Below, one piece after another: positions 1,480 to 15,448 of a stretch of 20,162 nt of DNA (position 1 is its first letter; each line of letters begins with the position of its first letter). The translations under genes were made by a program, and so were the position numbers. The notes under the pieces are model-generated. The model was not told where the DNA came from and made no database searches. It was given only the letters and a program-made list of their open reading frames with translations. The DNA comes from a virus (Duplodnaviria; Heunggongvirae; Uroviricota; Caudoviricetes): the IMG/VR virus record IMGVR_UViG_2684623171_000007; one strand, given 5' to 3'.

Positions 1480-2370
1480 TCAGGCTGCCAGATCATCGTT
1501 TCCGATGGAAGCATAATAAGCTTTTTCTGCTTCTGCCGGAGGAGTATGGCCCAGCCTTCCCAGCAATCGTCGATTGTTATACCAGTCCACCCACGTTAGT
1601 GTGGCCAGTTCCACTTCTGCACGGTTTTTCCAGCTCTTACGGTGTATTACCTCCGCTTTGTAAAGACCATTGATGCTCTCAGCCATCGCGTTGTCATACG
1701 AGTCGCCTGTACTCCCTGTTGATGCCAGTAATCCGGCTTCTTTTAGTCGCTCCGTATAGGCCAGTGACACATACTGAGAGCCTTTATCGCTGTGATGGAT
1801 GGTGCCAGACGGACGACGGGCCCACAACGCCTGCTCCAGCGCATCCAGCACGAATGTCGTTTCCATAGACGATGAGACCCGCCACCCCACGATGTATCCG
1901 GCAAACACATCAATGATAAACGCCACATAGACGAAGCCCTGCCATGTGCTGACGTAAGTAAAATCAGCCACCCACAGCTGGTCAGGTCGTTCTGCCACGA
2001 ACTGACGGTTTACGCGGTCGCCTGCGGCAACGGCTTTCCGGCTGATGGTCGTACGGACCTTTTTACCCCGGAGAACACCGGCAAGTCCCATAACCGCCAT
2101 GAGACGTGCCACTGTACATCTGGCCACCCTGATTCCTTCCCGTAACAACTGACGCCAGACTTTACGCACACCGTACACCTGATGATTTTCATCGTATACG
2201 CGCTGTATCTCTCTCTTCAGCCAGTCGTCGTGCTGCGCACGGGCACTGCGTTTATCCGGATGATGTCGCTGTTGCTGACAATGGTAATACGTTGACGGGG
2301 CAATATGCAGTTCGCTGCATACCGGTCCGACCCCGTACTGCTCACGCAGCTTATCCAGCAGTGGCATCAT
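1480..2370 (-). CDS. IS629-like transposase OrfB (catalytic part; normally expressed as an OrfAB fusion by -1 frameshifting in IS3-family elements)
   Basis: ORF track 296 aa in the -1 frame relative to OrfA, overlapping OrfA by 4 nt at an A6 run; contains the DDE-family motifs. Confidence 0.85.
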
Positions 2371-2693
2371 TTTTTCCAGAGGCGGTCGAACTCCGCCTTC
2401 GCAAAATAAGCGGAAGCCTGGCGAAGGATATCGTTACTGCGGCGCAGTTCACGATTTTCACGTTCCAGCTCTTTCAGACGCTGACGTTCAGCGCTGGTGA
2501 GCCCACCATCACCGCCCCCGGTATCCCGCTCATGCTGGCGAACCCAGACACGCAGAGTCTCCGGCGTACAGCCAATCTTTGGGGCAATGGAACAAATTGC
2601 CGCCCACTGTGAGTCATATTCATCCTGACTTTCCAGAACCATACGAATCGCCCGCTGACGGACTTCGGGGGAAAAACGAGTATTTTTAGTCAT
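2367..2693 (-). CDS. IS629-like transposase OrfA (HTH DNA-binding part)
   Basis: ORF track 108 aa: [98 protein letters not shown]. Stop overlaps the OrfB start in an A-rich run (GGAAAAAATGATG). Confidence 0.9.
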
Positions 2694-7439: not shown

Positions 7440-8045
7440 GTGTGGTCTGAAATAATAATTAAGGAGATTATCGTGCTATCTTACTTAATGGCAATTCACT
7501 TTGTTTTATTTGGAAACTCTACTAATTTAAAAAACTTCTGGAAACATGAAGTAATTCGGCGGAAACGTATGGATATCTGGAGGCTTTTAAGAGAGAAAAA
7601 ACAGCGTAACCGGAATTTCCTTTTCTGGTGGCGGTTGGCTAACGAAATGTATATTAATGGTAATAAATTACATAAGAAAGCAGCCAAAAAGTTAAACAGT
7701 AAAATAATTAACAAGTTTGGTTGTGAAATAGGATTGGGCGCAAATATTGGAAAAGGGTTGACAATTCCCCATCATGCTGGAATTGTTGTTCATTTTGCTG
7801 TTGATGCGGGTGAAAATCTGGTATTACGACAGAATACTACCATTGGACAGATAGATGGTGATATGCCTAGTTCAAGAGTAAAAATTGGTAGTAACGTTGA
7901 TATCGGAGCTAATTGTTGCATCATTGGATTATCACGTAAAATTGGGGATAATGTAAAAATAGGTGCAATGTCTTTTATAAATAAAGATATACCATCAAAC
8001 TGCACATATATAACTAAAAAGAGTGGTGTTGTATTGTATAAATAG
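7440..8045 (+). CDS. hexapeptide-repeat (left-handed beta-helix) acyltransferase, serine/sugar O-acetyltransferase-like; low-GC cargo gene
   Basis: ORF track 201 aa. Likely true start is GTG at ~7473 after AAGGAG (MLSYLMAIHF...). Tandem hexapeptide [LIV]-G-x-x-x-x pattern (GCEIGLGANIGKGLTIPHHAGIVVHFAVDAGENLVLRQNTTIGQIDG...VKIGSNVDIGANCCIIG..KIGDNVKIGAMSFI) typical of the CysE/WcaB/LacA acetyltransferase family. The segment 7320-8090 is visibly AT-rich compared with the flanking tail genes. Confidence 0.7.
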   Translation: MWSEIIIKEIIVLSYLMAIHFVLFGNSTNLKNFWKHEVIRRKRMDIWRLLREKKQRNRNFLFWWRLANEMYINGNKLHKKAAKKLNSKIINKFGCEIGLGANIGKGLTIPHHAGIVVHFAVDAGENLVLRQNTTIGQIDGDMPSSRVKIGSNVDIGANCCIIGLSRKIGDNVKIGAMSFINKDIPSNCTYITKKSGVVLYK

Positions 8046-8090: not shown

Positions 8091-8621
8091 ATTGTGGGGC
8101 GACTGGCCACTCAACATCCGCTGCTACTGTTGTATCAACACGATTCAACAATACCCGATATGTCTTCCATGCAGCCAGTAACGATGCCTCTTCCTCCGTC
8201 GCAATATCCAAATCTACGGCATCCTGAAGTGGCGCAATATGCTCACTGGCTACCTGCATCAGGCTGTTTTTTGTTTCTTCTGCCTCCCGTACCCGAAACA
8301 GTTTTTCTGCTTCTGCATCTTTCGCCCAGGATGTGCCGTTCCACTTCTGACACTCTCCATCCGGCGACAACCAGGTAACATTTTCCGGTAACGGACCGAG
8401 TTCAGAAATAAATAACGCGTCGCCGGAAGCCACGTCATAAACCGTTTTACCCCGATGATCTTCAACGAGATGCCACGATGCCTCATTACTGTTGAAAACA
8501 GCCACGAAGCCAGCCGGAATATCTGGCGGTGCAATATCGGTACTGTTTGCTGGCAGACCTGTATGAGGCGGAATGTATGCGTCACCTTCACCAATAAATT
8601 CATTAGTTCCGGCCAGCAGAT
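8089..8621 (-). pseudogene. tfa: tail fibre assembly protein (Tfa, P2 gpG-like), 5'-truncated by the IS629-like insertion at 8622
   Basis: ORF track 8089..8505 (GTG-initiated) ends ..[30 protein letters not shown], the characteristic Tfa C-terminus. The same frame stays open upstream to the IS boundary (..[45 protein letters not shown]..), matching the internal part of Tfa proteins as I recall them; about 15-20 N-terminal codons and the start codon are missing. Confidence 0.85.
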
Positions 8622-8675
8622 TGAACCGCCCCGGGAATCCTGGAGACTAAACTCCCTGAGAAAGAGGTAAACAGG

Positions 8676-9002
8676 ATGACTAAAAATACACGTTTTTCCC
8701 CCGAGGTCCGTCAACGGGCAGTCCGTATGGTTCTGGAAAGTCAGGGCGAATATGACTCACAATGGGCGGCAATTCGTTCCATTGCCCCAAAGATTGGCTG
8801 TACACCAGAGACTCTGCGTGTGTGGGTTCGTCAGCATGAGCGGGATACCGGGGGCGGTGATGGTGGACTCACCACCGCTGAACGTCAGCGTCTGAAAGAG
8901 CTGGAACGTGAAAATCGTGAACTGCGCCGCAGTAACGATATCCTTCGCCAGGCTTCCGCTTATTTTGCGAAGGCGGAGTTCGACCGCCTCTGGAAAAAAT
9001 AA
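8676..9002 (+). CDS. IS629-like transposase OrfA (copy 2)
   Basis: ORF track 108 aa; differs from copy 1 OrfA at 4 residues (V16, G24, R34, T67 versus I, D, C, S). Confidence 0.85.
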
Positions 9003-9678
9003 TGCCGCTGCTGGATAAGCTGCGTGAGCAGTACGGGGTCGGACCGGTATGCAGTGAACTGCATATTGCCCCGTCAACGGATTACCACTGTCAGCAACAG
9101 CGACATCATCCGGATAAACGCAGTGCCCGTGCGCAGCGCGATGACTGGCTGAAGAGAGAGATACAGCGCGTATACGATGAAAATCATCAGGTGTACGGTG
9201 TGCGTAAAGTCTGGCGCCAGTTGTTACGCGAAGGTATCAGGGTGGCCAGATGTACAGTGGCGCGCCTCATGGCGGTTATGGGACTTGCCGGTGTTCTCCG
9301 GGGTAAAAAGGTCCGTACTACCGTCAGCCGGAAAGCCGTTTCCGCAGGCGACCGCGTAAACCGTCAGTTCGTGGCAGAACGTCCTGACCAGCTGTGGGTG
9401 GCTGATTTTACTTACGTCAGCACATGGCAGGGCTTCGTCTATGTGGCGTTCATCATTGATGTGTTTTCCGGATGTATCGTGGGGTGGCGAGTCTCATCGT
9501 CTATGGAAACGACATTCGTGCTGGATGCACTGGAGCAGGCGTTGTGGGCCCGTCGGCCGTCCGGCACAGTCCATCACAGTGATAAAGGTTCTCAGTATGT
9601 ATCACTGGCCTATACGGAGCGACTAAAAGAAGCAAAACTGCTGGCATCAACAGGGAGTACAGGTGACTCGTATGACAA
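9002..9678 (+). pseudogene. IS629-like transposase OrfB, C-terminally truncated (copy 2)
   Basis: ORF track 9002..9691 (229 aa); the last residues (..DSYDNVFY*) are read from non-IS sequence, so the conserved C-terminal ~70 aa of OrfB are missing. Confidence 0.8.
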
Positions 9679-9710
9679 TGTATTTTATTAGTTCACATAC
9701 AATTATCAGA

Positions 9711-10025
9711 TTATTCTGGGAATAAGGTCTGAATATTCTTTTTTATTTTATAAAAATTGCATTCAACTCCGCTAGGCTGATTAGCCTGGTATGTTTCCTT
9801 GATGCTAACGGTATTGAAGGGGAGGTTGTCCTCTGGCCATTCGGCCATCCAGTAGGCAAATGCTGGGTTGCGCTTTATGAGTGCTAGCCCAGCCAGAAAG
9901 GCCGCGCGTTGCGCGCGGCTGCGTTCGGAGGCTGGCAGGCTATCGAGGTAATTGCACGCCTCCTGTTCACTCTTGACGGCGGCGGGCTTCAGATAGAAAC
10001 TTATCCGTCTGGTTGGTGTCGTCAT
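9711..10025 (-). CDS. parR: ParR/StbB-like centromere-binding partition protein (ribbon-helix-helix)
   Basis: ORF track 104 aa; starts 5 bp after the parM-like stop. N-terminal half (RRISFYLKP...LDSLPASERSRAQRAAFLAGLAL) resembles ParR of plasmid R1 as I recall it (..TIAFKLNP..LDSIPQGERSRLNRAALTAGLAL..). The C-terminal third is divergent and encoded by AT-rich DNA next to the IS junction. Confidence 0.6.
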   Translation of the reverse strand: MTTPTRRISFYLKPAAVKSEQEACNYLDSLPASERSRAQRAAFLAGLALIKRNPAFAYWMAEWPEDNLPFNTVSIKETYQANQPSGVECNFYKIKKNIQTLFPE

Positions 10026-10029
10026 TGGT

Positions 10030-10989
10030 TTACTCCTTGTTCATTGCGTACAACCCATTAACCAGAGCAAACTGTGGCACCCCGTCCGCGATGAAAGTCG
10101 CATTAACTCCGCAGGCTTCGCGGATAGCGGTTGCCACAATCTCCGCCCCGCCACCGACAACCATCACCCGCCCGTAACCCGAAAAAACCGCCAGCGCGCG
10201 GATCACGCGTTGTTTCAGTGTTTCTTCCTTTTCACGAATAACCGCCATCAGGCTGGCGTAATGCGCGTCATTGTGGATGTGCTGGCGCAGCCAGGCTTCA
10301 TCATGGCGATGTTCGATAATGGTATTGGCGATGTGGTGACTGGTGCGCATACCGTTAGTGGCCATCACCGACAGTACGGCATCGGCCATCAGAGAAACGC
10401 CTACGTGTGGATCGCAAAACACCTGGCTGATACCTGCCAGTTGCCCCTGAACCTTTGCCACATCCAGCGTGGTTCCGCCCAAATCCACAATCAGCAGGGA
10501 TTCAAACGGACTCATGTCAGCCAGTGCCTTAAAGCCAGCAGGAATGGATTCAGGCATAACCCGTACGTTACGGATAGTGAATGCTTCGCCGTTCTGGTAC
10601 TCCACCGGGCGCATGACGTTCGCTTTTTTGCGGTTGATGTTGGCCATGTCCGGCTGTGCGTTTGTATCGAAATACTCGCTCAGTGGCAGGGTGACAACCA
10701 CATCCACTTCCTGTGGTGTGATGCCTGATTTGACCAGCGCGTGATGAATGGCAATTACATTCACATCGCTGTACTGGTATTGCGTGTCGGTCGTCTGGAC
10801 AAAGCGATCGCTGACCGGATCAAAACCATAGCGCACGCCATCAAGCATGTAGTTCGCGGGCTGCGTGCCACCGAATGGCGCAGACCATTCCGACTTGAAG
10901 CTGTTCGGGCTGATGGCGTTGCGGCGTTCGCCGTTCTCAGTCCATGCCAGCTTGATGTTGGTGGAGCCGTCGTCGATACAAATTTTCAT
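10030..10989 (-). CDS. parM: ParM/StbA-like actin-type partition ATPase
   Basis: ORF track 319 aa with AAGGA Shine-Dalgarno. Family-defining blocks IDDGSTNIKL, ISPNSF, YQYSDVNVIAIHHAL, MPESIPAG, LIVDLGGTTLD, GVSL, FSGY..VMVVGGGAE and LVNGLY align with R1 ParM/StbA as I recall it. Confidence 0.85.
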   Translation of the reverse strand: MKICIDDGSTNIKLAWTENGERRNAISPNSFKSEWSAPFGGTQPANYMLDGVRYGFDPVSDRFVQTTDTQYQYSDVNVIAIHHALVKSGITPQEVDVVVTLPLSEYFDTNAQPDMANINRKKANVMRPVEYQNGEAFTIRNVRVMPESIPAGFKALADMSPFESLLIVDLGGTTLDVAKVQGQLAGISQVFCDPHVGVSLMADAVLSVMATNGMRTSHHIANTIIEHRHDEAWLRQHIHNDAHYASLMAVIREKEETLKQRVIRALAVFSGYGRVMVVGGGAEIVATAIREACGVNATFIADGVPQFALVNGLYAMNKE

Positions 10990-11023: not shown

Positions 11024-11132
11024 ACAGGATTTTTAAATCCCGCTTTTGCCTGTTTTGTGCGCGCTTCATATATCGCGGCGCGTTTTTTGCTCATTTACGG
11101 GATTTGTGAGTCCCGTTTCTGTCTGTTTTTTG
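11024..11132. repeat. two ~36-bp direct repeats, each with internal dyad symmetry, upstream of parM (candidate parC-like centromere/operator or tandem hairpins)
   Basis: Copy 1 ~11024-11059 ACAGGATTTTTAAATCCCGCTTTTGCCTGTTTTGTG; copy 2 ~11097-11132 ACGGGATTTGTGAGTCCCGTTTCTGTCTGTTTTTTG (about 27 of 36 positions identical). Cores GGATTT..AAATCC and ACGGGA..TCCCGT are inverted repeats followed by T-rich tracts. Copy 2 lies inside the last ~20 codons of gene A. Confidence 0.4.
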
Positions 11133-13888
11133 TTTCCACTGGTCAGGCCACCCCGCAGCAGGTCTGCTTTGCGGCTGGCGCGTTCAGTGGTTTCACTGAT
11201 TCTCTGTGCGTGCTCTGCGTCGCGGATGGCGCGCAGCATGTCAGAAAGCACGGTAACGGGTGTTTTCATGGTGTTCTGGTCCTGCTGAAGTGTGGATGCC
11301 AGGCGTGCGGCGGCTTCAGGGTCTGATGCCCCCAGCTGTGCCAGATAGCTGGCGACCGGGTTATGGCGGATCTCCGTGCTGCTTACGCCATGATTACGGC
11401 TCAGGCGCTGCCAGAGCTGCGTGATTCGGCTGTCCGGGCGGGTATCCGGTTTGCGTACAATTTCAAATCCCTGCGGTGCAATGATGCTGCCGTCAACGTA
11501 CAGACTGCCGCCCCGTAACAGGTGCTGCATCTGTTGTTCACCGATATGCAGGCCGAGAGATTCAGCAGACTCCCGCCATTCTTTAGCGAGTAATTCGTGG
11601 TTATCAGGCAAAGGCCGCTGCTGTTTGCGGCTCTGTGTCCAGCTCTGCATTTCATCACTGCTGTTTTTTGCCTGTTTGTCACGAAGCGAACGCATCAGCG
11701 CCCGGCGTTCGTGCCGTTTCAGTGAGCGCATCCATTCGTTCACGTCAACGCCGTCAGGAAGCTGCGGCCACGGTGCTGGCCGTTCTTCCGGCTGTTCTGT
11801 CCCGTTGTTGTCCGTTTCCTGTACACGGGGACAGTTATTGCCACGAGTCCAAGGGGCGGCAGGGCCGCCCTGAAGGTCAAAACCATTTTCGCGGGCGCTG
11901 TCTTCTACTCCCGGTTTACGTCTTACCAGCTTCCAGTTATCCGGGTGCGTGCACACACGGGAGGATTCCCCGATGAGTGGTGACCAGATCCCGTAAATCT
12001 GTACGCTCTGTTCGCCGTAATCGTTCAGCTCATCTGCGAGGTCGTAGGCGGTGCGAATCAGGTAGTCCTTGCGTGGAACAAGTACGCCTCCCTGTTTCTC
12101 AATGTAGGTGGTAAAACATCCGGCATCAGCGGCAGCAAGAACCGCATCCATTGCGTCATCCTTCAGCCGTTGCGGGCCTTCCGGGTTGCGTGCCATCTGG
12201 CTGGCAAGGCGACGCAGTTCACGCCACACCTGACGGGAGGGGATGCCAAAGAACTGGAACTGGCGGACCCGGTGAAGGCGCGCCCAGCCAATGGCGCGTT
12301 CCACGCTCTCGGTCATTGATTTTCCGGTTTCGTGGTCAACGCGTGGTTTGCCTGTTTTCGGGTCGATGCCATCCACGGCGCGGCTGTCCAGGTTTTTTCC
12401 GATGTAGGTGGCGATGTAGCTGGTTGGCGTGCCTTTTGAGCCGTCGACATACTCCGCCTTAAAGCGCGGAGTAATATCATCGCCCAGCTCGTGACGATCT
12501 TCCTGAATGGCAATATCGCGGGTGTGGGACACAATGGTGTCGATTTCTTCCGGATGAGCAAAGACCATCATATGCCAGTGCACGGTGCCGTCATGGTGAG
12601 GCTCCACCGTGCGGATGCCATACCAGCGCAGGCCGTCGCGGTTCAGTTTCTTGCGGACCGCCGCAAAAAACGTGTTAACCAGGTAATCGCTGGAGTCGCG
12701 CATGGTGGCCCCGTTCCATTTGGGATTCGGATGACCGTTCTCTGTTGTAGCGTGGTATTTTGACGGGCAGGTGACAGTCAGAAACACCGCTTTGTCGCCA
12801 CGGGCTTCGGCCAGAAGTTCCAGCCCCTTCATGGTGGCCATCATTTCTGCCTTACGGTGAACCGGGTTACTTACTCCCGCGTAATACACTGTCTCGAGAT
12901 CAATCGTGAACCCGTCTTCGTTTTCCAGCATGAAACTTTTCAGGAAATCGCGTGTTTTCTCGCGCTGTGCGCGAAACTCGCTTAACGCGTCCTGGCTCAG
13001 ATAGGGCGATGTTTTTCTGGAAACCAGACAGGCGGCGCGGAGTTGTTCTTCTCTCCACTCGCAACGTAACAGCCACAGTTTGCGTTTCCACCATTCCGCA
13101 CAGGTCAGGCGAAGGATTGCGCCCGGCAGCAGCTCCGTGTCCGGTTCGTTCCTCCGGTCTTTGTCTGTTGTCAGTGCGTCATAATGTGGAGGCATGGCGT
13201 GCAGGTGTAACGCCATGCGGGCCAGCATCTGATACGCCTTCAGCGTTACATCCATGGTCAGTTCGCCATCGGTCGCGCCAAAGCCATCGCAGAGTTTTTC
13301 GAAGGTGCTGCTGAACATCGCCGCCGTCATGGTGGCCAGCGTCTGTATCTGGTGTTTGTTGAGCTGCGGCAGGTAAAGCAAATCGTCCAGGCGTTCGCGT
13401 CCGGCAAGGGAGCGATAACCCTGTGTCAGCCAGCGGTGATCGGTGCGCTCCAGACGTTCGAATATTTTGCGCAGGTTTCCGCGCGCGTAGCGTTCAGCCT
13501 GCCAGCTCTTTTTGCCTTTCTGACGATCGGCTTCCTGTTTTTTGCGCAGGAAGGAGAGGTGGCGAATAAGCGGATCGCGCAGATAGGACGGCAGCAGGCG
13601 CAGCGAGGCCATGGCTTCATCCACCGCACCGCGTGCCTGTTTTCTGGCGTCTCCTGCCAGTGTGATGGTTTTGTCCTGTTTTTCCTGTGCGTCCAGGCTT
13701 TTATTAATCAGGTTGCCCAGCGGCGTTGCGGAGAACGCCGCATCAGCCATTTCCTGGCGGCGCTCGTTCTCTACCCGGTAGGCATCCAGCCAGGAGGAAA
13801 GCGCGGATTCAGGAGCGGGGATCCCCGTTCCTTCACGCCCCACTGCGTGGCGCGGTTGTTGCCAGTCCCTGATGTACTCTGCCGTCAT
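11066..13888 (-). CDS. A: replication initiation endonuclease (P2 gpA-like, HUH rolling-circle initiator)
   Basis: ORF track 940 aa. Contains an HUH-type motif (DGTVHWHMMVF) and a downstream tyrosine motif (TPTSYIATYIGKNLDS), the arrangement established for P2 A-family initiators. Sits at the distal end of the early operon as in P2. It is longer than P2 A as I recall it (~760 aa), so the real start or C-terminal tail may differ. Confidence 0.8.
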   Translation of the reverse strand: MTAEYIRDWQQPRHAVGREGTGIPAPESALSSWLDAYRVENERRQEMADAAFSATPLGNLINKSLDAQEKQDKTITLAGDARKQARGAVDEAMASLRLLPSYLRDPLIRHLSFLRKKQEADRQKGKKSWQAERYARGNLRKIFERLERTDHRWLTQGYRSLAGRERLDDLLYLPQLNKHQIQTLATMTAAMFSSTFEKLCDGFGATDGELTMDVTLKAYQMLARMALHLHAMPPHYDALTTDKDRRNEPDTELLPGAILRLTCAEWWKRKLWLLRCEWREEQLRAACLVSRKTSPYLSQDALSEFRAQREKTRDFLKSFMLENEDGFTIDLETVYYAGVSNPVHRKAEMMATMKGLELLAEARGDKAVFLTVTCPSKYHATTENGHPNPKWNGATMRDSSDYLVNTFFAAVRKKLNRDGLRWYGIRTVEPHHDGTVHWHMMVFAHPEEIDTIVSHTRDIAIQEDRHELGDDITPRFKAEYVDGSKGTPTSYIATYIGKNLDSRAVDGIDPKTGKPRVDHETGKSMTESVERAIGWARLHRVRQFQFFGIPSRQVWRELRRLASQMARNPEGPQRLKDDAMDAVLAAADAGCFTTYIEKQGGVLVPRKDYLIRTAYDLADELNDYGEQSVQIYGIWSPLIGESSRVCTHPDNWKLVRRKPGVEDSARENGFDLQGGPAAPWTRGNNCPRVQETDNNGTEQPEERPAPWPQLPDGVDVNEWMRSLKRHERRALMRSLRDKQAKNSSDEMQSWTQSRKQQRPLPDNHELLAKEWRESAESLGLHIGEQQMQHLLRGGSLYVDGSIIAPQGFEIVRKPDTRPDSRITQLWQRLSRNHGVSSTEIRHNPVASYLAQLGASDPEAAARLASTLQQDQNTMKTPVTVLSDMLRAIRDAEHAQRISETTERASRKADLLRGGLTSGNKKQTETGLTNPVNEQKTRRDI

Positions 13889-13894
13889 AGTGAT

Positions 13895-14260
13895 TTACTT
13901 CGTCATGCCATTCAGGGTGTCGCGGCAGGCTGTAGCCAGCCGCTGAATTTCCAGCACGGTGTCTTCTGTGTCGGCATGGCGATGTGTGATGCGGATGCTG
14001 TCGGCAATCACATCGACGATTGCAGAGGATGGGCGCTGGTAAATGCCAATAACGGACGGGGTGCCACCTTCAATGCGGTAAAGCCTGTAATTTCCCTCGT
14101 GGCTGTCAATCATGTAGCGACCATCAATAACAATCTTTCCGTCAGCGAGCTGCGGTACAGGCAGGGATTTCAGGTACATGTCATAACGATCACGCACGCG
14201 AGCGGCAAGATCACGTTCTGTGTTGAGCAGGTATTCAAGAAAGTCGTTGGCGAGAATCAT
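13895..14260 (-). CDS. hypothetical protein (early operon, immediately upstream of A)
   Basis: ORF track 121 aa, same strand and tightly spaced with A; no family recognised by eye. Confidence 0.45.
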   Translation of the reverse strand: MILANDFLEYLLNTERDLAARVRDRYDMYLKSLPVPQLADGKIVIDGRYMIDSHEGNYRLYRIEGGTPSVIGIYQRPSSAIVDVIADSIRITHRHADTEDTVLEIQRLATACRDTLNGMTK

Positions 14261-14332
14261 TGCGGCAATCCTCTTGTTACAGATGTGCGAAGGCCTCCCG
14301 CCGCAAGGTGCAGGAAAGGCCCGGAACAGGAA

Positions 14333-14563
14333 TTAATGGAGTTTGTTTTGCTGCTGGATGAGCTGTTGAAACTCGTGCAGATCATCCGCCAGATAGCTGA
14401 AAACAGAGGCGGAATAAATGTTTGATAGTGCGTGGCTGCGCTCATGCAGCATATTGATGTGCATGATTTGCGCGACGCGTGATGCGCGGGAAAGTCTGCG
14501 GTTGATTTCAGTCTGGATGTGACGACGCTCCGCGATAGCGCGGTGCTGTTTGCGGTCTGCCAT
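14333..14563 (-). CDS. hypothetical small basic protein (76 aa)
   Basis: ORF track; AAGAGG Shine-Dalgarno about 8 nt upstream of the ATG. Preferred over the overlapping 205-aa ORF 14257..14874, which has low-complexity composition. Confidence 0.4.
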   Translation of the reverse strand: MADRKQHRAIAERRHIQTEINRRLSRASRVAQIMHINMLHERSHALSNIYSASVFSYLADDLHEFQQLIQQQNKLH

Positions 14564-14740
14564 GGTGTGGCCTCTTTGCTCGGTGATAGAAATAACTCAC
14601 CATCCAGAGTTGAGAATCTCGGGGTGGCGAGACGTACAGGGTTCTCAACACCGGAGAGCAAAGAATCCGGCCCGACCGAAGTCGGCCCCGTACGCCCCGC
14701 CATAATTCTGACGCGAAAAAGACGTGGCAATACAGTACGC

Positions 14741-14764
14741 ACAAAAAAACCGCTAGCGCGGTTA
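14741..14764 (-). terminator. candidate rho-independent terminator on the minus strand
   Basis: On the minus strand: 6-bp stem AACCGC/GCGGTT with a 4-nt loop, followed by TTTTTTT (plus strand reads ACAAAAAAACCGCTAGCGCGGTT). Confidence 0.4.
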
Positions 14765-14835
14765 TGCGCTTTGCTCTGTATCGGGTTGAGAATCCCGGCA
14801 CCCGTTTTATGAGGTGCAGCGGAAATGTAACCTGA

Positions 14836-14864
14836 CCGATTGCGGCATGGCAAGCGGTTTTTTT
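14836..14864 (+). terminator. candidate rho-independent terminator on the plus strand (antisense to the early operon)
   Basis: CCGATTGC-GGCATG-GCAAGCGG (8-bp stem with one mismatch, 6-nt loop) followed by TTTTTTT. Confidence 0.4.
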
Positions 14865-14885
14865 GTGTGTGCATGTTCTGGTTTC

Positions 14886-15185
14886 TTACTGGTTCAGAAA
14901 AAAATCAAAAACGTTATCGATGCGTTGCAGCAGCTCTTGCTGCATTGCTTCCGGCGTTTCCGGTTCGCCAGGTGCCCCCAGCGTTGCGCAGAAATCAGCG
15001 ATTTCATGATGGAGCGTGAGGCGAATGGCAGGAGCCGTGGTTCTGGCGTGCTCCAGCTGATCCAGCAGTGCCAGCACAGCAGACGGCGAGAGCATTGCGC
15101 GAAATGCCAGTAATTTTTGAGGCGTTGCCATTCGTTGCAGGGCAAATGCCAGTTCGCGTAGCTTCTGGTGGTTGATGGTGCTCAT
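14886..15185 (-). CDS. hypothetical protein
   Basis: ORF track 99 aa; 4-bp overlap with the upstream ORF 15182..15448 suggests an operon. Confidence 0.45.
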   Translation of the reverse strand: MSTINHQKLRELAFALQRMATPQKLLAFRAMLSPSAVLALLDQLEHARTTAPAIRLTLHHEIADFCATLGAPGEPETPEAMQQELLQRIDNVFDFFLNQ

Positions 15186-15448
15186 GCTCTGGCTTCCTTC
15201 AGTAGCTGGTTAAACATGTGAGTAAGTGGATTGCTACACCCGAACGGCATCGGGTTTACGTGGTAAGAAGCCTGGCCTCCTGTTTTGCGAGCGCGACCAC
15301 CTGTGCTGCGGTTTGTTCTGATGACTAAGCCGCCGCGCCAAAGTCGGCGTAACTCAGCATTAATGGCTGTGGTTGGGGTATTCAGTGCTGCGGCGATCTC
15401 TCCGCCGCTACACCCCGGATGAGTAGCGATGTAGTCCAGAATGGTCAT
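15182..15448 (-). CDS. putative winged-helix DNA-binding protein
   Basis: ORF track 88 aa; N-terminus (ILDYIATHPGCSGGEIAAALNTPTTAINAELRRLWRGGLVIR) has a helix-turn-helix/wing pattern. Function not assignable by eye. Confidence 0.45.
   Translation of the reverse strand: MTILDYIATHPGCSGGEIAAALNTPTTAINAELRRLWRGGLVIRTNRSTGGRARKTGGQASYHVNPMPFGCSNPLTHMFNQLLKEARA

Follow-up and report, generated by a model that had tools for sequence, protein, structure and literature searches.

The DNA analysed here is a 20,162-nt stretch of a caudoviricete genome (IMG/VR record IMGVR_UViG_2684623171_000007), which we refer to as the window. Within its early operon, at positions 14,564 to 14,885, lies an island of about 320 bp in which an earlier note, made from the sequence alone, had found no convincing coding frame, three copies of a short motif, a GC-rich hairpin and terminators on both strands. 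The whole window was scanned against Rfam at gathering thresholds, and two RNA genes, both on the minus strand, together fill this island. The first is isrK (RF01394, a family of Hfq-binding RNA), a full-length match at 14817..14743 (−) that scores 63.0 bits against a gathering score of 50. The second is the C4 antisense RNA (RF01695), which covers model positions 1-87 of 87 at 14707..14620 (−) and scores 78.5 bits against 45. They are followed by a gene for a 76-aa protein related to P4 epsilon. The island is in all likelihood an antisense-RNA immunity cassette of the P1/P4 type, made up of IsrK, C4 and their target sites with the epsilon-like gene as cargo. The system is an unannotated member of a well-described kind, already known from P1 and P4.

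In C4, two unpaired segments, a′ and b′, can pair with sites a2 and b2 downstream and with sites a1 and b1 upstream, and 'c4-a1b1' denotes the two-hairpin motif that holds a1, just 5′ of b1 (Weinberg et al. 2010, PMC2864571, supplement). The arrangement predicted from the letters of the window fits this c4 / c4-a1b1 layout exactly:

14864..14858, minus strand: A7 tract, just upstream of the −35 box
14824..14864, minus strand: predicted isrK promoter, sigma-70-like (promoter scan), with −35 TTGCCA at 14853..14848, an 18-nt spacer and −10 TACATT at 14829..14824
14834..14864, plus strand: hairpin followed by T7, overlapping the isrK promoter including its −35 box
14743..14817, minus strand: IsrK / c4-a1b1 RNA, comprising hairpin 1, hairpin 2 with a1 in its loop, single-stranded b1 and an intrinsic terminator
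14794..14785, minus strand: a1, GAUUCUCAAC, in the loop of IsrK hairpin 2; complementary to a′ of C4
14776..14769, minus strand: b1, GAGCAAAG, single-stranded, just 3′ of hairpin 2; complementary to the b′ loop of C4
14743..14763, minus strand: intrinsic terminator of IsrK (terminator scan), AACCGC-GCUA-GCGGUU with its stem at 14763..14748, then U7 to 14743
14672..14685, minus strand: C4 hairpin P2, CCGAC-UUCG-GUCGG, with a UUCG tetraloop and further stem on both sides
14663..14656, minus strand: b′, CUUUGCUC, in the 12-nt loop of C4 hairpin P3
14649..14640, minus strand: a′, GUUGAGAACC; GUUGAGAA, noted also as GUUGAGAA(CC), forms the unpaired stretch that links P3 to the 3′ strand of P1
14618..14609, minus strand: a2, GAUUCUCAAC, 5 nt past the predicted 3′ end of C4
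14581..14574, minus strand: b2, GAGCAAAG, overlapping the Shine-Dalgarno sequence AAAGAGG (14577..14571) of the epsilon-like gene
14563..14333, minus strand: epsilon-like gene, 76 aa; Pfam PF25738 (Derepression), 31.9 bits against a cut-off of 27
14260..11066, minus strand: downstream operon genes, a 121-aa open reading frame (ORF) at 14260..13895 and then replication gene A at 13888..11066

IMG/VR was scanned for relatives of the 76-aa protein, which gave 80 loci (89-100% identity). Together with the window and one GenBank phage these make 82 loci with 42 unique upstream sequences, and the 306-nt alignment of these regions (A1) holds 37 distinct rows.

Both RNAs are supported by folding and by conservation in these relatives. 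IsrK folds with a minimum free energy (MFE) of −24.2 kcal/mol (z −2.7) into the same hairpins as the family structure. Its promoter-like site puts the start at 14817 and its terminator lies at 14763..14743; both are predictions, and both are kept in relatives. The −10 box ends 7 nt ahead of the 5′ end that Rfam assigns to isrK (14817), both promoter hexamers are invariant across the 42 unique relatives, and the terminator stem is invariant as well. The A7 tract may serve as an UP-like element. Alignment with P1 c4, whose ends are annotated, predicts a mature C4 of 79 nt (14701..14623), and its conserved flanks line up with those ends (AAUUAU followed by GG on the 5′ side, CCACC on the 3′ side). 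The predicted RNA folds with an MFE of −47.1 kcal/mol (z −5.3) into a structure identical to that in Rfam, in which a long closing stem, P1, surrounds P2 with its stable tetraloop and P3 with its large loop, together with an unpaired 3′ linker. All three stems are 100% paired in the 37 distinct relatives, with four pairs changed on both sides, and in P2 two pairs change compensatorily in relatives of the L054 type.

The repeated motif of the island finds its place in this framework. GTTGAGAAYC occurs three times in the 20,162-bp window, at 14609-14618 (+), 14640-14649 (−) and 14785-14794 (+), against a chance expectation of 0.09; three matches were reached in none of 100 shuffles. The exact count agrees with the positions given in the earlier note (about 14609 and 14785, with an inverted copy at about 14639), and the motif is found nowhere else in the 20 kb. 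It is the a recognition element, present as a1 in the IsrK loop, as a′ in C4 and as a2 downstream. A second triplet, GAGCAAAG, has the same layout when the minus strand is read: 14581..14574 (−), the complement at 14656-14663, and 14776..14769 (−). This set of two direct copies and one inverted copy stands in register with the first and is absent from the earlier note; it is the b element (b1, b′ and b2). The remaining features also have counterparts: the GC-rich hairpin at about 14667-14690 is C4 hairpin P2 with its UUCG loop, and the minus-strand terminator at about 14741-14764, called by the terminator scan, is that of IsrK. All island features except the plus-strand hairpin are parts of one minus-strand transcription unit.

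The sequence, the duplex energies and the covariation show that b′ (in a hairpin loop) and a′ (in the linker) of C4 are complementary to a2 and b2, with b2 covering the Shine-Dalgarno sequence. This site starts 18 nt ahead of the ATG of the epsilon-like gene, a distance that is the same in P1. Predicted duplex energies favour cognate over non-cognate partners, at −10.2 versus −4.1 kcal/mol for a′-a2 and −14.0 versus −6.1 kcal/mol for b′-b2. Within an unprocessed transcript of 273 nt, b′ and a′ are predicted to pair with a2 and b2 in cis and to sequester the Shine-Dalgarno sequence.

Comparison of homologous prophages, which the earlier note had proposed, places the variation among relatives in exactly these sites. 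The promoter hexamers, IsrK hairpin 1, the terminator, the C4 stems, the Shine-Dalgarno sequence and the ATG are nearly invariant, and the differences are concentrated in the six short sites. Five a-alleles (UUCUCAAC, UUCGCAG, UUGGAAC, UUUCCAC and UUGCAAC) and eight b-alleles occur, each in matching form at all three of its positions. For a′-a2 and b′-b2, 95.4% of cells form standard pairs versus 68.9% after shuffling (0 of 500 shuffles reach the observed value), 141 cells are changed on both sides versus 41.6, and the covariation score is 0.629 versus 0.118, with slid-register controls at 0.05-0.18; the relatives are closely related, so these shuffle counts are not probabilities. The upstream partners behave alike. 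For a1-a′ and b1-b′, 96.1% of cells are paired with the same covariation, and the b1-b′ helix is paired in 100% of cells, five of its eight pairs showing changes on both sides. The alleles also make use of G-U pairs, as GU in four rows (a′-a2/b′-b2) and as UG in four rows (a1-a′/b1-b′).

The a and b alleles reassort independently on a near-identical scaffold (alignment A1, upstream regions of loci L004-L083). Locus L063, for example, combines the a-allele of the window with another b-allele, and L081 combines the a-allele of L042 with the b-allele of L072. This reassortment suggests that cassettes recombine and that new immunity types are selected for. Given the independent alleles, their reassortment and the slid-register controls, an RNA-RNA recognition code is the only economical reading despite the kinship of the relatives. 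In IMG/VR, four pairs of loci come from the same genome; two pairs differ in their alleles and two are identical, and the identical ones may be assembly duplicates.

The protein encoded by the cargo gene is, on sequence grounds, a homologue of P4 epsilon, the helper derepression (anti-repressor) protein. Over 50 aa it shares 32% identity with epsilon (E 6e-9), and epsilon itself scores 170 bits on PF25738; its reading frame has a pN/pS of 0.28, and RefSeq names the product 'derepression protein'. Farther along the operon, gene A matches Pfam Phage_GPA with 438 bits and is 30% identical to P2 A (E 2e-79). The 121-aa ORF between them was compared with P4 orf151 and rejected as a homologue (E 0.16), and neither of the two ORFs downstream of the cassette gave a match to Icd or Ant domains. 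Upstream lie cox-like and Arc-like genes and a divergent C-like repressor gene, and a winged-helix gene is located nearby (15448..15182, −). The genes upstream (window 15182-15448 and 14886-15185, both −) vary among relatives, with at least four contexts joining at the A7 tract (14858-14864), and homology between loci with different upstream genes begins at this tract. The convergence of these contexts on one point indicates that the cassette and the epsilon-like gene behave as a unit with a sharp 5′ boundary.

The nearest phage relatives are P2-like phages of the P88/Xuanwuvirus type. Many E. coli O157:H7 chromosomes match the 901 nt around the island with 100% identity, related copies are present in 1293 of 5426 complete E. 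coli genomes, and the element is probably the P2-like O157 prophage Sp13. At this locus, RefSeq and GenBank entries list no RNA genes; they give no more than 'hypothetical' or 'derepression' proteins or a bogus 'Ash-like' feature. A scan of genome contigs returned three loci only. A sequence labelled Vagococcus sp., a Firmicute (NZ_JBQPOM010000071.1, L088), carries a copy of the enterobacterial epsilon-like gene at 87% identity, and contamination or a mislabelled assembly is likely.

The closest parallel to this cassette is P4, with the same RNA pair, an epsilon-type cargo and the same position ahead of a replication gene. P4 has isrK (60.8 bits, 8692..8615) and C4 (74.9 bits, 8507..8420) upstream of epsilon, with all six a/b sites colinear with those of the window and b2 on its AGGAGG Shine-Dalgarno sequence. 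In P4 these make up the CI-RNA immunity region, with seqA, seqB and seqC. In both, the operon leads to an epsilon-type derepression protein and then to a replication gene, which is the alpha primase in P4 and A in the window. The two differ in their recognition sequences and in spacing, since the epsilon-like gene of the window directly follows C4 (57 nt) whereas P4 has an ORF of about 65 aa in between. They also differ in their carriers. Unlike P4, the window belongs to a P2-like phage of the helper type, with gene A, cox-like, C-like and P2-type tail genes, and not to a satellite; its cassette resembles P4 immunity in its working, but the carrier is no P4-like element of the kind marked by alpha primase, sid, psu and delta.

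In P1, the immI region runs through promoter, a1, b1, c4, a2, b2 and the start codon of icd, the same order as in the window and with near-identical spacing. Its C4 belongs to the same Rfam family (68.8 bits), and its upstream element scores higher as c4-a1b1 (51 bits) than as isrK (35 bits), the reverse of the window. Both elements carry an anti-repressor function as cargo, supplied by Icd and Ant1/2 in P1 and by an epsilon-type protein in the window. The a/b specificity alleles have a parallel in the heteroimmunity of P1 and P7. As a side point, Rfam keeps two overlapping families for the upstream element, isrK (RF01394, no clan) and c4-a1b1 (RF03163, clan CL00128).

The Salmonella prophage Gifsy-1 (L090, 34131-34316), from which the name IsrK derives, has isrK, C4 26 nt later (69 bits) and then an anti-repressor gene. 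Unlike the window, it is a lambdoid prophage with a cargo of the AnrP family, followed by isrJ. Its isrK has its own promoter and a leaky terminator, and both the short IsrK and a read-through mRNA are documented (Hershko-Shalev et al. 2016, PMC4825925). The 'orf45' of Gifsy-1 and the processed STnc1160 of about 80 nt coincide with the C4 match. That study mentions neither c4 nor P1 (PMC4825925), and a 2025 review likewise leaves IsrK and c4 unconnected. In P2-like phages, the Tum protein of 186 is another anti-repressor able to lift CI/C repression; Tum stands under a LexA-repressed promoter, whereas the window cassette has no nearby LexA box. The genomes of P2 and 186 gave no isrK or C4 match at E up to 1, and the cassette was accordingly rejected as a general P2-like feature. 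It is a mobile module common to unrelated temperate elements and, among classical P2-like phages, particular to the P88/Sp13 lineage.

On this basis a regulatory circuit can be proposed. The cassette would be read on the minus strand from its own predicted promoter (about 14853..14824). Most transcripts are predicted to stop at the IsrK terminator, yielding a 75-nt IsrK that displays a1 and b1, and read-through transcripts to carry C4, the a2/b2 targets and the epsilon-like mRNA. By homology with P1 c4 and P4 CI, RNase P would cut C4 from this precursor. Pairing of C4 with its targets would keep the epsilon-like gene from being translated, both in trans and, where the transcript is unprocessed, in cis, and the untranslated mRNA would let Rho terminate, as in P1 and P4, so that the 121-aa ORF and gene A are held down. 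An attenuator upstream of gene A, which the earlier note had considered, is plausible by the same comparison, the same RNA giving downstream polarity in P1 and P4. IsrK, with its second copy of both targets, would serve as a decoy that, when abundant, titrates C4 and frees the epsilon-like protein, a step that draws on the Gifsy-1 work and on the original idea of competition by a1 and b1. The freed protein would then inactivate the P2-type C repressor, and the many matched a/b alleles would act as immunity specificities, as between P1 and P7.

Several points weigh against this reading. In the upstream element of the window only isrK scores, and c4-a1b1 (RF03163) stays below its threshold of 46.7, which is passed in P1 and Gifsy-1. 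The pairing of a′ amounts to eight contiguous pairs, its first column being unpaired in 23 of the 37 distinct relatives. The C-like repressor of the prophage matches P2 C over 46 N-terminal residues only, at 33% identity. The polarity that may act on gene A is pure analogy. A search for literature on small RNAs in Sp13 / CP-933T found no paper. Finally, the published model for Gifsy-1 has IsrK activating through the translated 'orf45' (PMC4825925). Because that study reports an activator circuit and a translated ORF over C4, the sign and hierarchy of regulation here are ones that we infer by analogy.

A first alternative applies this activator logic to the window. The read-through transcript would be locked in cis, and short IsrK would open it in trans so that the anti-repressor is translated; rather than repressing in trans, C4 would chiefly be a structural piece of the leader or else a short ORF that is translated. 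The Gifsy-1 locus is indeed the same cassette of isrK, C4 and anti-repressor, translation of the anti-repressor rose there more than 100-fold when IsrK was supplied in trans, and tagging revealed an ORF across the C4 region (PMC4825925). The cis pairing predicted for the full-length transcript of the window would suit this alternative as well. However, P1 c4 and P4 CI, which score 69-75 bits with the same Rfam model, are processed trans-acting repressors, as is established knowledge and as the P1 annotation states. The window has no short ORF at the position of C4, the only ORF across it being one of 205 aa that fails the coding test. Activation by IsrK is moreover what a decoy for C4 would produce, so that the two accounts for the most part describe a single circuit from different viewpoints. 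We consider the purely activating version rather unlikely.

Another explanation is that the cassette is an inert relic in a defective prophage. The prophage in the window is rearranged and interrupted by copies of an IS3-family element, and Sp13, which the window probably represents, is described in the Sakai strain as lacking most morphogenetic genes (PMC2669165). Yet the six sites and the stems of the window are all intact and fit one another, the locus is kept without change across the O157 genomes mentioned above and has relatives in the 1293 E. coli genomes, and Sp13 still excises, replicates and is packaged after mitomycin C (PMC2669165). An inert relic is therefore very improbable.

The details of this rearrangement are as follows. 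Two inverted IS3-family copies with transposase orfA/orfB lie at window 1480-2693 (−) and 8676-9691 (+), and both carry ALIL frameshift pseudoknots (2412..2296 and 8957-9073). The first copy lies against the 3′ end of the tail-sheath gene or overlaps it. The second, in which orfB is 229 aa versus 296, lies between the tail genes and the parM-A region. That side is taken up in another O157 strain by portal and terminase genes instead, which indicates that the prophage is rearranged in the window. A full-length match to Rfam IS009 (RF02111, 191 bits) at window 8126-8324 (−) sits between a hexapeptide-transferase-like ORF (7440-8045) and the second IS copy. After gene A, ParM-type plasmid segregation and partition/stability genes occupy window 9711-10989 (−) and are also present in the phage relatives; they suggest an option of plasmid-like maintenance.

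The third alternative concerns the 205-aa ORF that overlaps the cassette (14874..14257, −), which would be a real protein of the 'Ash family' or a 'transcriptional regulator'. Of the 42 unique relatives, 38 keep this frame open (205-206 aa), and residues 13-110 of the ORF match PHROGs 995, 821 and 6928 ('transcriptional regulator') with E 1e-16 to 1e-13. It has a weak match to Pfam Phage_ASH (PF10554; 18.6 bits against a cut-off of 26), and PGAP labels it 'similar to ash family protein' in a related phage. However, over the 228 nt that it has in common with the epsilon-like gene, pN/pS is 1.59 in its own frame versus 0.28 in the epsilon frame. Its similarity is confined to the stretch over isrK and C4, where two of the three frames are free of stops across the whole RNA region of the window, so that openness carries no information. 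In P1 the equivalent frame is interrupted by a stop within c4. The Phage_ASH score of 59.7 bits in P4 belongs to the old 'cI gene product' ORF, which overlies the CI RNA gene, and the shared peptide 'RIMxG' is the translation of the conserved AAUUAUGGnGGGG at the 5′ end of C4. The protein similarity arises because a conserved RNA gene has been translated. The ORF was rejected as a gene and as a Phage_ASH protein, given its pN/pS and its Pfam score below the cut-off, and a real product is hardly credible. The absence of a convincing coding frame is thus borne out; the homology that the earlier note had named as a possible objection does exist, at a PHROG E of about 1e-16 and as the weak Ash match, and is traced to the RNA.

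The families concerned may themselves need a second look. Phage_ASH (PF10554) and several PHROG 'transcriptional regulator' families appear to have been built on ORFs over isrK-C4 RNAs. In P4 (L002, 8168-8584), PF10554 matches the obsolete 'cI' ORF over the CI RNA, and epsilon itself belongs to PF25738. A survey of P4 satellites used PF10554 as its 'epsilon' marker (PMC8628076); given that match, the survey may have tracked the RNA cassette.

The last alternative takes the repeats for DNA sites (operator, iterons or an origin-like element) of a co-evolving sequence-specific protein. It can draw on their direct-inverted-direct arrangement, on the winged-helix gene nearby and on the fact that sites bound by such a protein would likewise change in concert, and is nonetheless extremely unlikely: the sites lie in unpaired loops and linkers of two conserved RNA structures matching curated families, the middle copy reads as the reverse complement of its two companions, which is what antisense pairing calls for, G-U pairs are tolerated in the allele sets, the flanking proteins remain 89-100% identical while 5 x 8 alleles switch and reassort, the neighbouring region has no words of at least 8 nt in common with the Pe/Pc control region, and P2 and 186, with the same A-type replication, lack the element. 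Of the interpretations offered in the earlier note, the small regulatory RNA or antisense pair holds, with IsrK and C4 above their Rfam gathering scores and the three copies being co-varying RNA-RNA partners, whereas the cluster of protein-binding sites, the operator and the origin-like element do not.

Other candidates for the control of the cassette were also considered. A second promoter upstream of C4 (TTGCCA at 14730, AATTAT ending at 14702) would start inside the closing stem of C4; its −35 box reads TCGCCA in many relatives and its '−10' is the conserved 5′ leader of C4, and it was rejected. LexA control was rejected for want of a CTGT-N8-ACAG site near the cassette, matches in the window being at chance level. 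Control by the prophage C repressor was rejected as well, the isrK promoter region having no words of at least 8 nt in common with the Pe/Pc region. No C1-type operator or second promoter was found upstream of the cassette.

The plus-strand terminator that the earlier note had placed at about 14836-14864 stands only in part. The hairpin and its T7 exist, but with a free energy of −11.4 kcal/mol (z −0.9) it is no stabler than shuffled sequence, the scan called no terminator there, and no plus-strand promoter or gene was found that would feed it. It was rejected as a firm feature. The commonest variant in it, a C-to-U change in 49 of the 82 loci, keeps a G-U pair in the plus sense and breaks the pair in the minus sense. 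This pattern hints at a plus-strand role, perhaps in halting antisense transcription.

The gain from this analysis is one of annotation and context rather than of principle, this kind of system being already well described. It fills an annotation gap in a region present in about a quarter of complete E. coli genomes. It also joins three separate literatures, those on P1 c4, P4 CI and Salmonella IsrK, and adds helper-type P2-like phages to the carriers of the cassette. The context itself is of note, namely a P4-style RNA immunity-epsilon cassette in a helper-type O157 prophage with a rich set of natural specificity alleles. These matched a/b alleles on a near-invariant scaffold provide a ready series of orthogonal antisense-target pairs.

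For O157 prophage biology, the cassette is a concrete candidate for an unexplained observation. Asadulghani et al. (2009) reported a P4 epsilon-like gene in Sp13 together with mitomycin-C inducibility that was left unexplained, the Sp13 repressor being without a cleavage motif (PMC2669165). It is possible, and we suggest it tentatively, that in phages of the P88/Sp13 type the cassette is a real switch for induction and heteroimmunity, in which C4 restrains the epsilon-type anti-repressor and, by polarity, gene A, and stress-driven IsrK titrates C4. If so, this would explain how Sp13 responds to mitomycin C despite such a repressor. The a x b alleles (at least 5 x 8) would then constitute an RNA 'immunity code' for cross-repression and cross-induction, covering co-resident P2-like prophages and possibly P4-like satellites with the same type of cassette. 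P4 would in that case have taken its immunity-epsilon cassette from a helper-type phage, or the reverse.

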